Origin: a virus
Taxonomy: Duplodnaviria > Caudoviricetes
IMG/VR virus record: IMGVR_UViG_3300037882_002064
Location: 1,423-65,422 of that record
Reading direction: 5' to 3' (one strand)
Length of the DNA stretch: 64,000 nt
The position numbers and the translations under genes are program-made. Positions 5,643 through 52,653 of the stretch are shown here, one piece after another. The first letter of the stretch is position 1; every line of letters begins with the position of its first letter. The notes below the pieces were generated by a model. It saw nothing but the letters and a program-made list of their open reading frames with translations, searched no databases and was not told the origin of the DNA.

Positions 5643-7241
5643 ATGGCCCTGATCGGCAATCAATCGGTACTGCACAAGTCGCCGGGTAGATTTCTGTCAG
5701 GGACGCCGGGAACGCTGCGCTCTAATTTCAACAAATACGGCATGATGGCTGGCCGGTTTGAGAAAATGGGGTTGTACAACGCGATCCCCGCAGGCCACGC
5801 GGGCGGGCCTTCGTGCTGGGCCTTGCCGCAGAAACCTGGCTTTTTGTCGTCCCGCAGCGAGGCGTATGTCACGCTCGATTCCAGCGGCCCCGCCTCTATG
5901 GGCCGAGCGATTGATGGCGATGCGCCAGTTACCATTGACAGCGCGGCGACGATCCGGGCGATCAACTGGGCCTTTGGTGATGCAGTATTCACCATAGACT
6001 CAGCAGGCTACGCCTCGATGGGCGTAAACCTTGAGTCAGACGTAACCATCACCGTAAATGGTACGGCCGATCCATCAGGCGGCGCGTTCATGTACTCCGC
6101 TATAACCATCACCATTGATGGTGCGGCAGATGGCATTTCCGGGGCGGGCATTGCGGGTGACGCCGACTTTACCATCGACGCCAGTGGCCTTGCGTCCTTT
6201 GTGCTGACAGCCGCAGGCCAGGCCGACATATCGTTTGGCGCGTCCGGCACCATGTATGGCGCTATTCAAGTTGTTGGGCAGGCCGACATAGCCATTACAG
6301 TCGGTGTAGTGCCTACCTACGCACTGGGCAACATGACAGGCAACAGCCTGATCCAGCTCACTGACGGTACGCTGGCACCTTTCGCCATTGGCTACATGGA
6401 GGGCAGCACACTTTACGCGCCCGAGCTGACGCCGCAGAACGTGGCTGAGGCAGTCTGGGCGGCAATAGCGGCAGCGAATAACCTTCCCGGCACGATGGGC
6501 GAGCTACTGAATGGCGCTGGTGCTGGTGGAGATCCGTGGCTGACGCCGCTCCCAGGGGCTTACTCGCCAGGTACTGCCGGGCAGATTATTGGCCTGCTCG
6601 ATGAAATGACTCAAGACGATGGCTTGGGCAACGCGCAGTACACGCCGATTGCCCTAGCGCAAGCGCCGGTTGGTATAGGCAGCTCCCCTTCAGGCGAGTG
6701 GCTGTTTGATACAACCCTGACTTCCGGGCCGGGATCTGGCGACTTGCGTGTGAATAATGCGTCACTGGCCAGCGTGACGGCGATCTTCATCAATGAGACA
6801 ACCGCCAACAACGGCAATTCCACTGACTACCTGACCGCGCTGAAGGCCGGCGACTCGATTTTTGTCTATCAGGATGGCGCTGCTGACAAGTTCCTGAAGC
6901 TGAAGATCAGCATTGCGCCGGTCGATATAGGCGCGTCATGGACTATTACCGGGATCGTGACAGACAGCGGCGGCAGCTTCGGCAACAACAAGCGCCTCAA
7001 GGTCACGCTGGTCGCAGAGGAAATCAGCGCGGCCACGATAGCTGATGCGGTATGGATCAAGGGTATTGAGGCCGGGTATTCCGCTGAAGAAATACTCCGA
7101 TTGCTTGCAGCTTATGCGGCTGGTGATGCCTCTGGCCTCGATGGCACGGCAGAGTTTACCGGGCTTGATGGTGTGACTCCGCGAATACAGGGGACGATTA
7201 CCGGCAACGACCGGGCGATCACTGCGCTGGACGGCACATAA
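5643..7241 (+). CDS. Putative fibre/appendage protein
   Basis: About 19-aa periodic G.A..TID repeats; two [VI]A[ED]AVW motifs flank an internal domain. Confidence 0.65.
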   Translation: MALIGNQSVLHKSPGRFLSGTPGTLRSNFNKYGMMAGRFEKMGLYNAIPAGHAGGPSCWALPQKPGFLSSRSEAYVTLDSSGPASMGRAIDGDAPVTIDSAATIRAINWAFGDAVFTIDSAGYASMGVNLESDVTITVNGTADPSGGAFMYSAITITIDGAADGISGAGIAGDADFTIDASGLASFVLTAAGQADISFGASGTMYGAIQVVGQADIAITVGVVPTYALGNMTGNSLIQLTDGTLAPFAIGYMEGSTLYAPELTPQNVAEAVWAAIAAANNLPGTMGELLNGAGAGGDPWLTPLPGAYSPGTAGQIIGLLDEMTQDDGLGNAQYTPIALAQAPVGIGSSPSGEWLFDTTLTSGPGSGDLRVNNASLASVTAIFINETTANNGNSTDYLTALKAGDSIFVYQDGAADKFLKLKISIAPVDIGASWTITGIVTDSGGSFGNNKRLKVTLVAEEISAATIADAVWIKGIEAGYSAEEILRLLAAYAAGDASGLDGTAEFTGLDGVTPRIQGTITGNDRAITALDGT

Positions 7242-51200: not shown

Positions 51201-51337
51201 GGAAATGACCCGCCGATCCCGCAGCCCGCGGCGGCCAGTATAATGGCCACTACGACATAGCCCGGTTGTTTGGCGAACAGCCAGGCCATGCCACTAAGGG
51301 AGGCCAGGTACACAACGGCGAGCAATGCAAGAGAGAT
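51194..51337 (-). CDS. Small 2-TM membrane protein (about 47 aa; ATC start, or TTG at 51325)
   Basis: (I/M)SLALLAVVYLASLSGMAWLFAKQPGYVVVAIILAAAGCGIGGSFPH; AAGGA 7 nt before the ATC; overlaps the giant gene stop. Confidence 0.4.
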   Translation of the reverse strand: MSLALLAVVYLASLSGMAWLFAKQPGYVVVAIILAAAGCGIGGSFPH

Positions 51338-51353: not shown

Positions 51354-51445
51354 TGGTCGAAGGGGGTGGATTGGCTACCACCGCAAGCGGGCGTTCCCTC
51401 CCGCACCAGGGTATCGAACCCCTGCTCTAATTGAGCTACCCTTCG
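51354..51445 (-). tRNA. Atypical tRNA-like element (class II-like; possible CGA/Ser anticodon; may be a pseudo-tRNA)
   Basis: CGAAGGG-TA-GCTC-AATTA-GAGC-A-GGGG-TTCGATA-CCCT-[variable arm GCGGG/CCCGC]-GGTGG-TAGCCAAT-CCACC-CCCTTCG-A-CCA. Perfect acceptor, D and T stems and encoded CCA, but non-canonical loops. Confidence 0.7.
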
Positions 51446-51696
51446 TTTTTATCGAATGGCATAAGAGTCTGCCAAGGATCATCGATCAGCGCATTATGAT
51501 CTTCCTCTAACGCCCTGTCCATGCGGATCACAAGGATCGCCAAGTAGGTCTGCATTGCAGATAGCTGGATACCCAGCAGGCCTCGATCCAGCTCGGTTAA
51601 GCCGGCCGCATTGTCTTTCAGGAAAAACGATAGCTGCCGGGTCTTTGCCTTCAGTTCATTATGTTCTTCGACCAATCGAATATGCCAATCACTCAT
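51436..51696 (-). CDS. crAss001_48-like helical hairpin protein
   Basis: RLVEEHNEL..K...L..F...LL..QL.AM..YL.IL..R pattern. Confidence 0.7.
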   Translation of the reverse strand: MSDWHIRLVEEHNELKAKTRQLSFFLKDNAAGLTELDRGLLGIQLSAMQTYLAILVIRMDRALEEDHNALIDDPWQTLMPFDKNEG

Positions 51697-51714: not shown

Positions 51715-52653
51715 TTATGCCAATCTGTACCGCCGCCGTATATGCTCGCTCTTGCATTTTTTATCACCGCACGTTGAGAGCTTTTTGTAATCGGATGGCG
51801 TCATGGATATTGCCTTATTGCAGACAGCGCAGTGCTTGGTAAGCCGCGTTTCTTTCCTGATCGCGCTGGCGCACGACCGACTACAGAATCTGGATGGCTT
51901 CTCAGGCCGCACTCGCGCCTGATAGATTTTACCACAATGATCGCACGGCTTCTCAAACGTCCCCTCTCCCGGCGCGAGCTGATTGGGCTTTTTCACTTGA
52001 GCCAGCAAATCATTAAATTCCACATCATCAGGATTGCGTCGAGCAAAACTGTAAATCTGTCCTGTGTGCCTTATTTGCTCGTAAAGAGTGGTTCCTTGCT
52101 CAATGGCGCTCTGGATCGCGGCAAGGTACACCGCCCGATATTTTTCGCCTACAGCGGCATCTTGCACTTTTTTCGCCAGCTTTATGTTGATGCGCGCAAA
52201 TGTCACTTGCTCTGCATTCAGCTCAGGCCTGTGAACCAGTGTTGATTTTGACTTGTGCATTGTTCCGTGCAGGTTGACGATATTTTCTTTTAGCAGTTTT
52301 CTAACGCCTTCCATCTTTGGGCTTTCCTGCCAAGTGCGCTCAGTAATCGCTTTCTTTCGCTCCTTCAAATCCTCGCCACACAAGCTCCTTGTCACAGGGA
52401 TATTAAAATCTATTTTGTACTGCTTGGGGCTAATGCTGTGCGCTATCGACAAGTGGTGTCCGAGACTTTTATATTCGCCACCGCAAATCAGACAGGCTAT
52501 TTTGTCGCCTGACAGATATAGCAACAGCTCTGCAACGGATTGTATAGGCCTGTATGAAATGGCCTTTTTGGGCGGCGGTTTCGGGCGGCTTCTTCTGGAA
52601 TGCGGTTTCCCGCTGCCACCATGATTCGGCTGGATTCTACTGCCCATTATCAA
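51715..52653 (-). CDS. MucR/Ros-type zinc-finger protein with extra C-terminal zinc ribbons
   Basis: IACLICGGEYKSLGHHLSIAHSISPKQYKIDFNIP; then CDHC...FCSRSC and CAVC...TCGDKKC. Confidence 0.75.
   Translation of the reverse strand: MIMGSRIQPNHGGSGKPHSRRSRPKPPPKKAISYRPIQSVAELLLYLSGDKIACLICGGEYKSLGHHLSIAHSISPKQYKIDFNIPVTRSLCGEDLKERKKAITERTWQESPKMEGVRKLLKENIVNLHGTMHKSKSTLVHRPELNAEQVTFARINIKLAKKVQDAAVGEKYRAVYLAAIQSAIEQGTTLYEQIRHTGQIYSFARRNPDDVEFNDLLAQVKKPNQLAPGEGTFEKPCDHCGKIYQARVRPEKPSRFCSRSCASAIRKETRLTKHCAVCNKAISMTPSDYKKLSTCGDKKCKSEHIRRRYRLA

Follow-up and report, generated by a model that had tools for sequence, protein, structure and literature searches.

The stretch of DNA analysed here, referred to as the window, is 64,000 nucleotides (nt) long and corresponds to bases 1423-65422 of the complete, 65,422-bp virus record IMGVR_UViG_3300037882_002064, a freshwater phage genome with direct terminal repeats. 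In this genome, a leftward operon of recombination genes faces a convergent giant gene, and on the minus strand at the 3′ end of the operon lies a 92-nt sequence (51445-51354), which reads as a cloverleaf with an encoded ACCA end. This sequence, hereafter the element, is numbered from nt 1, at window position 51445, along the minus strand to position 51354. It is best read as a maintained, non-canonical transfer RNA (tRNA)-like gene derived from a serine tRNA (tRNA-Ser).

Structure and tRNA origin of the element

The 92-nt tRNA-like RNA described on the minus strand in the original prediction, which had been made from the letters alone, was present with every stem and loop listed when the sequence was read (Table 1). 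The element was characterized by a perfect 7-bp acceptor stem, a discriminator A (A73) followed by an encoded CCA, a 2-nt linker, a D-arm, and a T-arm adjoining the acceptor. All 26 pairs of the drawn structure were standard (25 Watson-Crick pairs and one G-U). The variable region formed a hairpin of six pairs and one A·G, capped by GGAA, with the GGT and TTGC at its base left unpaired. The cloverleaf was reproduced by RNAfold with a minimum free energy of -42.4 kcal/mol (z = -3.1; 2 of 200 shuffled sequences folded equally well), the program favouring in the second arm 5 pairs and a 5-nt loop over 4 pairs and a 7-nt loop.

The elbow of a tRNA was missing from this structure, as the D-loop contained neither G18 nor G19 and there was no 7-nt T-loop with T54-ψ55-C56. 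The anticodon arm had 4 pairs plus an A·G instead of a 5-bp stem, and its loop, TTCGATA, contained U33 but also U37 in place of the purine that is, to our knowledge, near-universal at this position of tRNAs. It had been pointed out in the original prediction that this loop reads both as the anticodon CGA and as a T-loop consensus. Both readings held, the first with U33 and the second as an exact fit closed by a G-C pair (G-UUCGAUA-C); any CGA anticodon loop with U32 and U33 gives TTCGA, so that the T-loop likeness may be a coincidence.

Standard tools did not report the element. ARAGORN, under default settings, found no tRNA anywhere in the window, and Rfam models applied at gathering score returned nothing over the window. 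An Rfam search of a 501-nt slice at E ≤ 10 returned no tRNA, as did a whole-genome search, and no other tRNA was found in the phage genome by ARAGORN (window) or Rfam (whole genome). When a 111-nt slice was compared with 4227 families under laxer speed filters, the Rfam tRNA model RF00005 aligned full length (model positions 1-71) to 51357-51445 on the minus strand, with a score of 25.6 bits (E = 9e-4; cut-off 29 bits). Detection therefore depends on the speed filters. The element did not match YrlA, transfer-messenger RNA (tmRNA), or any other tRNA-like Rfam family than tRNA at E ≤ 10. A full-length alignment at 25.6 bits indicates tRNA derivation rather than a chance match. The element is thus tRNA-derived and is not a canonical tRNA, in agreement with what had been predicted.

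In the RF00005 alignment, the model positions GGU (G18, G19, and 20) were deleted from the element and the anticodon arm was flagged as mispaired. The T-loop was aligned as U54, one inserted A, G55, C56, C57, A58, A59, and U60, meaning that U54, C56, and A58 were retained while ψ55 and R57 were lost. U8, A14, A21, and the G53-C61 pair were also retained.

Two more permissive searches were carried out. ARAGORN called the element only at -ps80, as tRNA-Ser(cga) with exactly the structure drawn in the original prediction; this call was set aside as uninformative, because at that setting the program made 53 calls in the window versus a mean of 41 in 20 simulated windows. A loose custom cloverleaf descriptor had a single match in the window, which was the element. 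The same descriptor gave 16 matches in 6 simulated windows and 21 in loci L002-L030, none of which was followed by CCA.

A second copy and the search for homologues

A word search of public sequencing runs found only small shares, and four runs (X1, X2, X15, and X20) were compared in detail. The freshwater runs X1 and X20 contained only short pieces of close phage relatives (95-99% identity), with X1 covering nt 1-24 of the element. A contig from X2, a run labelled as an organism and probably DNA, matched only 51376-51444, with 0 differences in 69 nt, and in a contig from X15, a metatranscriptome from a different study, the match was confined to 51359-51444 (1 difference in 86 nt; nt 2-87 of the element). 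Past these matches, both contigs became unlike the window, and their flanks were identical at the single end reached by both. The body of the element is thus conserved at 99-100% identity in a second genomic context.

In this second copy, nt 1 was G (C in the window) and nt 88 was C (G in the window). Pair 1-72 is therefore C-G in one version and G-C in the other, which is a compensatory swap. A73 was kept in the copy, and CCA was not encoded. The X15 contig spans the copy and both flanks; either a longer transcript or carried-over DNA could account for this, and no firm conclusion on expression follows.

When its opposite strand is translated, the 3′ flank of the copy gives ...YEAAVGQ-stop, ending 4 nt from the discriminator. 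The giant protein of the window ends in ...YAEKVLQ-stop, in which Y, V, Q, and the stop occupy the same places, and relatives of this protein have an FNxxYxExV tail, which the flank of the copy fits. The copy is therefore probably located at the equivalent junction of a related phage, the flanks having since diverged. Each end of the copy is adjoined by a palindromic six-base site, as might be expected of an engineered cassette; this origin is less likely, given that the 3′ flank appears to encode the end of a homologue of the giant protein.

Further versions were sought in several collections. Among IMG/VR, GTDB genomes, and JGI metagenomes, IUPAC patterns combining the D-arm with the second-arm loop matched 0 stretches. 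A pattern combining the D-arm and the T-loop with a free middle gave 0 matches in IMG/VR, 5 in metagenomes, and 2 in genomes. Six of these seven were nearly identical copies of a single AT-rich stretch, one of them labelled SAR86, and the remaining match was in an Anaerolineales contig; none had an acceptor stem and all were therefore attributed to chance. A looser D-arm/T-loop pattern had three IMG/VR matches, of which two were one stretch without a cloverleaf, probably coding, and the third was a different tRNA-like RNA (in locus L033, described below). No match was obtained by blastn against plasmids, phages, and E. coli genomes. Against 29 loci, blastn-short and nhmmer found only words of 11-13 nt, and a custom covariance model (R1), applied to the window and 30 loci, matched only the element itself. 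Two stretches of the element were unmatched in the full text of papers, a search that could miss sequences printed in supplements, which are not searchable. The collection of homologues proposed in the original prediction thus yielded one other version, that of X2 and X15, and no further homologue in the collections searched.

Relatives of the locus were identified through the C-terminal 499 aa of the giant protein. This region had 28 relatives in IMG/VR at 26-38% identity, as well as matches at <60% identity in 336 phage records, including Vibrio, Stx-converting and other Escherichia, Ralstonia, and Burkholderia phages; some of these records were annotated as LPD5, DarB-like antirestriction, or multidomain transglycosylase/helicase/methylase. 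Of the 28 loci, 25 had an open reading frame (ORF) on the opposite strand after the giant gene, showing that the relatives share the convergent layout. In a Vibrio phage relative, the junction measured only 36 nt. The element was absent from the 28 loci, of which ~4 kb around the 3′ end of the giant gene were covered, and from the Vibrio phage relative, and is therefore not a general feature of the group. Two homologues of the upstream 86-aa protein (P0004 and P0005; 81% identical), found on short ENA/JGI contigs, ended in ...MPFTDT and were two residues shorter, which implies either that the element junction differs there or that the acceptor stem covaries.

This narrow distribution is what would be expected if the element were a dead or dying tRNA gene, that is, a functionless relic whose stems have not yet decayed, and the sub-threshold score and the silence of the default finders fit such a relic as well. 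Sub-threshold tRNAs are also present in other phage arrays, for example at L054 1463-1529 (27.8 bits). We nevertheless consider this explanation unlikely, since the element departs from the tRNA pattern in its loops, whereas none of its 26 pairs is non-standard. According to a rough binomial estimate with an assumed event count, 8 random events in a 76-nt tRNA would place at most one in a stem with p ~0.02. Moreover, the ACCA end of the element is intact. The original prediction had argued against simple decay, and this view was strengthened by the near-identity of the body in the second context, the compensatory 1-72 swap, and the retention of U8, A14, A21, G53-C61, U54, and A58.

The operon junction

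The leftward operon was found to encode RecT, a YqaJ-type exonuclease, DUF1351, SSB, several proteins of unknown function, a Ros/MucR-HNH protein, and the 86-aa protein directly upstream of the element. The Ros/MucR-HNH protein (312 aa; 51715-52653, minus strand), encoded two genes upstream of the element, combines a Ros/MucR zinc finger (residues 48-103, E = 1e-10) with an HNH endonuclease region (residues 233-308, from PHROG matches). As had been noted in the original prediction, the 5′ end of the element overlaps the stop of the upstream gene; this ORF ends in ...DKNEG-stop, with its last 10 nt inside the element and its TAG stop at nt 8-10. The upstream gene would therefore lose its stop codon if RNase P cleaved at nt 1.

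The element had also been placed at the end of the early operon. It does lie at the 3′ end of the operon encoding RecT, the YqaJ-type exonuclease, and SSB; a further ORF of 43-48 codons, however, precedes the giant gene, and this ORF had no Pfam match and no homologue, and is thus unsupported as a gene. Between the element and the stop of the giant gene, a long imperfect hairpin (51235-51295), which overlaps this small ORF, was also observed; the 171-nt stretch containing it folded at -65.8 kcal/mol (z = -2.1). The ORF of the giant gene alone fills one third of the genome. Two promoter-like sites were found versus 0.9 expected, and no intrinsic terminator was detected on the minus strand between 50600 and 52200.

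Table 1. Positions of the tRNA-like element, its parts, and neighbouring features in the window.
Feature	Position	Strand	Basis or remark
Whole tRNA-like element	51354..51445	-	Sequence, RF00005 25.6 bits over 51357-51445, fold, pair count
Acceptor 5′ strand CGAAGGG, nt 1-7	51439..51445	-	nt 1 is C here, G in the X2/X15 copy
U8-A9 linker and D-arm GCTC-AATTA-GAGC	51424..51438	-	4-bp stem, 5-nt loop without GG
A and second arm GGGG-TTCGATA-CCCT	51408..51423	-	4 pairs (1 G-U), 7-nt loop
25-nt variable region GCGGGAG-GGAA-CGCCCGC flanked by GGT, TTGC	51383..51407	-	Sequence read
T-arm GGTGG-TAGCCAAT-CCACC	51365..51382	-	5-bp stem, 8-nt loop
Acceptor 3′ strand CCCTTCG (nt 82-88), discriminator A, encoded CCA	51354..51364	-	Sequence read
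Upstream gene, 86 aa, crAss001_48-related	51436..51696	-	PF21825, E = 3.6e-14
Promoter-like site TGGACA-17-CATAAT	51493..51521	-	~48 nt upstream of nt 1; consensus match only
Possible small two-helix membrane ORF, 43-48 codons	51194..51337	-	AAAGGA 5 nt after CCA
Convergent giant gene, 7176 aa	29670..51200	+	Ends 154 nt from element 3′ end

The position of the element, at the 3′ end of the operon and facing the giant gene where an intrinsic terminator is lacking, raises the question of whether it serves only as punctuation in cis at a convergent junction, with RNase P cutting at nt 1 and the body protecting or defining RNA ends, and with no role in trans. In the second copy, the convergent stop lies 4 nt from the discriminator, and the antisense strand of the element also folds well (-38.8 kcal/mol, z = -2.2). 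A cut at nt 1, which removes the upstream stop codon, could also couple processing to expression of the upstream gene. A purely structural signal should, however, let loop and stem sequences drift, yet 85-86 of 86 nt are the same in the two contexts, and relatives have this junction without such an element; punctuation alone thus appears improbable. Phage RNAs processed by RNase P and the stable RNAs C and D of T4 are tRNA-like folds in longer transcripts that are cut by tRNA-processing enzymes. We know of no sequence relation between the element and these phage RNAs or the t-elements of plant mitochondria. The latter, which are likewise tRNA-like folds cut out of longer transcripts by tRNA-processing enzymes, provide a precedent for punctuation in cis (PMC1920247).

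The junction was also considered as a phage attachment site (attP), in which the element would copy a matching tRNA-like gene of the host. In 933W-type temperate relatives, the prophage ends in the region that follows the giant gene (the records stop shortly after the match), and identity between the element and the other genome is confined to the tRNA body. An attachment site is nevertheless very improbable. Neither a tyrosine (PF00589) nor a serine (PF00239) recombinase was found in the complete 65,422-bp genome, which weighs against it. Identity does not extend through the 3′ end but is bounded by nt 2 and nt 87, the terminal pair being changed in a compensatory manner, and the flank of the other copy resembles phage rather than host.

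Serine ancestry and possible role

According to a review, the bacterial tRNA-Ser identity set comprises G73, C72, G2-C71, R4-Y69, C11-G24, a large variable region, and G30-C40, of which the large variable region is the primary determinant (PMC9976931). Five of these seven elements were present, namely G2-C71, R4-Y69, C11-G24, the large variable region, and G30-C40, the last being counted only if A23·G39 is taken as pair 27-43. The two others, G73 and C72, were replaced by A73 and G72; the second copy has C72 and A73.

On another, unrelated phage contig, the gene at L059 6507-6596 (plus strand) was a canonical tRNA-Ser(tga) scoring 59.7 bits, with the acceptor GGAAGGG/CCCTTCC, A73, and CCA. Its acceptor is identical to that of the element at nt 2-7 and 82-87, and the two also share A73, CCA, a long variable arm, and the 7/5 layout of acceptor and T-stem. 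The element differs from it in having a D-stem of class-I type (4 bp), a 5-nt D-loop without GG, an 8-nt T-loop, a 4-pair anticodon stem, U37, C1-G72, and a score of 25.6 bits. No protein similarity between the L059 locus and the window was detected by tblastx. A73 had been regarded in the original prediction as odd for a serine tRNA. It is less odd than claimed, and not a sign of decay, because a canonical phage tRNA-Ser(tga) with the same acceptor also carries it. This phage gene itself has A73 where the table in PMC9976931 lists G73 as a bacterial serine identity.

These likenesses raise the possibility of an atypical elongator tRNA that still works, most likely tRNA-Ser(CGA), which is charged via its long variable arm and decodes UCG during infection; its altered loops might, in addition, make it a poor substrate for host tRNA nucleases. 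The 7-nt loop with U33 and the anticodon CGA, the five serine identity elements, the encoded CCA, and the acceptor and A73 common to a canonical phage tRNA-Ser all fit this explanation. UCG accounted for 145 of 921 serine codons of the phage (16%), so that a tRNA-Ser(CGA) would have work, and a codon-bias check showed no enrichment of UCG. Loss of the elbow can also be tolerated, since tRNA-Pyl is functional without G18, G19, and T-ψ-C and with a 5-nt D-loop (PMC7609411). Moreover, phage tRNAs with anticodon-loop changes are reported to evade nucleases (PMC10264068). We nonetheless judge a working tRNA to be somewhat unlikely. In four other phage loci, 18 of the 19 tRNA rows scored between 42 and 73 bits, and the score of the element, which lies below the 29-bit cut-off and far below this range, counts against decoding. 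The anticodon stem has 4 pairs, or else nt 26 is absent; position 37 is U, G73 and C72 are missing, and both elbow loops are altered.

Several known systems resemble the element in part. Irregular tRNAs and allo-tRNAs of bacteria and phages, some of which are charged or folded yet unused in translation, are likewise related to tRNA-Ser or tRNA-Sec; they too carry a long variable arm, escape standard finders, and in some cases overlap ORFs. Allo-tRNAs are defined by an 8/4 or 9/3 acceptor/T-stem layout (Mukai et al., PMC5389517), whereas the element has 7/5. An eighth acceptor pair is impossible in the element, where T8 would face C81, and it is therefore not an allo-tRNA. The 5-nt D-loop without G18/G19 and the T-loop without T-ψ-C are shared with tRNA-Pyl, but the single linker nt, 6-bp anticodon stem, 3-nt variable loop, and CUA anticodon of the latter (PMC7609411) are all absent from the element. 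Among phage tRNAs that counter defences, such as the T5 tRNA that acts against PARIS (PMC11464382), the element shares a phage-borne location, a non-standard anticodon loop, and a position beside accessory genes; those described in PMC10264068 and PMC11464382 are working tRNAs with point changes, whereas in the element the whole elbow is remodelled. YrlA (RF02553; PMC4201824) is also a non-coding tRNA mimic with D- and T-arm modules, but its topology is permuted: a loop closes the acceptor, and the two ends of the RNA lie in the stem that binds Ro.

Overall, we tentatively favour, with a probability of roughly 0.38, the explanation that the element is a maintained tRNA mimic which is processed like a tRNA and does not decode. 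As judged from the sequence features, such an RNA gene would descend from a class-II serine tRNA of phage type. Its transcription would start either with that of the leftward recombination operon or at the weak promoter-like site that lies within the upstream gene. We infer that RNase P would release the RNA at C1 and that its 3′ end would be trimmed to the encoded CCA. The features that have been kept are those read by enzymes acting on the acceptor end, namely the 12-bp acceptor/T-stem helix, the RCCA end, U8-A14, and the long variable arm. Those that have been lost are needed by the ribosome and by partners of the elbow (G18 and G19, and a 7-nt T-loop with T-ψ-C), together with one anticodon-arm pair or nt 26, the purine at position 37 (now U), and C72 and G73 of the serine set. 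The retention of acceptor-end features alongside the loss of ribosome and elbow features is what points to a non-decoding mimic. The likeliest role would be that of a competitor or decoy for a host tRNA-acting enzyme, such as a defence nuclease or a CCA-end toxin.

Several observations weigh against this non-decoding mimic. No tRNA-directed enzyme was found in the phage and no partner protein was identified. The 7-nt loop with U33 presents a clean CGA anticodon, the UCG codons of the phage could be read by a tRNA-Ser(CGA), and because tRNA-Pyl works, loss of the elbow is no proof that the element cannot decode. The evidence for maintenance consists of two versions only, which differ by one pair and at most one base. 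Recent transfer would explain the identity of these two copies as well as selection does, the compensatory 1-72 swap is a single event, and just 7 residues underlie the identification of the flank of the copy as the end of a giant protein. In addition, ARAGORN found no tRNA within ~4 kb of the 3′ end of the giant gene in the 28 distant relatives, and no homologue of the element was found in the same loci by sequence match or with R1.

To place the element among other phage RNAs, the 16-nt D-arm with its GG-less loop was followed in IMG/VR, where it occurred in 20 loci. These were sorted by eye, with R1, and with Rfam; five were RNA genes and the other 15 looked like chance. The five share the D-arm by design of the search and have not been shown to form one family. 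The gene at L059 9560-9628 (plus strand; 66-69 nt) combined a GG-less D-arm and a canonical T-arm with C1-G72, A73, and a second arm in which 5 pairs closed a 5-nt loop, and was followed by a terminator; it scored 45.7 bits with the Rfam tRNA model and was missed by ARAGORN. That at L048 2308-2442 (minus strand; ~135 nt), adjoining a tRNA-Arg in a 318-kb contig, had a perfect 7-bp acceptor, an ACCA end, the T-loop TGAAAAT, and an insert of ~80 nt at the place of the anticodon arm (42.3 bits). At L047 11342-11476 (minus strand; also ~135 nt), a perfect 7-bp acceptor and a canonical T-arm enclosed a middle of ~77 nt in place of the anticodon arm. These last two genes look like tRNA frames carrying an extra RNA module.

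The two remaining genes were L054 2340-2411 (minus strand), which has a GG-less D-arm and lies in a gap of a 13-tRNA array (no ARAGORN call; R1 24.2 bits), and L042 9140-9195 (plus strand), a partial YrlA match of 36.8 bits (cut-off 69) with the same AATTA D-loop as the element. Another gap of the 13-tRNA array contained the irregular tRNA-like sequence at L054 1463-1529 (minus strand) cited above, which was also not called by ARAGORN. A sub-threshold YrlA match was observed at L047 11890-11990 (minus strand; 29.8 bits, cut-off 69). Directly after a phage tmRNA gene, L033 7489-7550 (plus strand) exhibited a tRNA-like fold without an anticodon arm, composed of a 7-bp acceptor, an 18-nt single strand, a short D-like hairpin, and a canonical T-arm; in the same locus, ARAGORN reported a tRNA with a 2-nt anticodon at 6929-7000. 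Together, these loci show that intact irregular tRNA-like genes recur in phages.

A broader proposal, which we regard as doubtful, is that phages harbour a hidden class of tRNA mimics, the element among them, in which the acceptor/T-stem helix and CCA are kept and the elbow is absent. In such a class, the element would carry a true T-loop module, G-UUCGAUA-C, at the tip of its anticodon arm. After excision by RNase P, it would sequester a tRNA-acting or T-arm-binding host enzyme, such as a defence nuclease, a CCA-end toxin, or a modification enzyme. Related podophages with the giant DarB-like gene would retain it at the junction beside this anti-restriction gene. Possible fellow members are L059 9560-9628, L054 2340-2411, and the genes in L047 and L048, which have the same GG-less D-arm and no usable anticodon loop.

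The tRNA genes of phages are now viewed as weapons in a contest over host defences that cleave tRNAs. Surveys of these genes count only the calls of tRNA finders, and phages also carry well-folded tRNA relatives that the finders reject. If such RNAs are made and do not decode, they would represent a new kind of small phage RNA acting on the tRNA machinery of the host; if they do decode, the limits for a working bacterial tRNA would be wider, extending to molecules with no elbow, a short anticodon stem, and U37.

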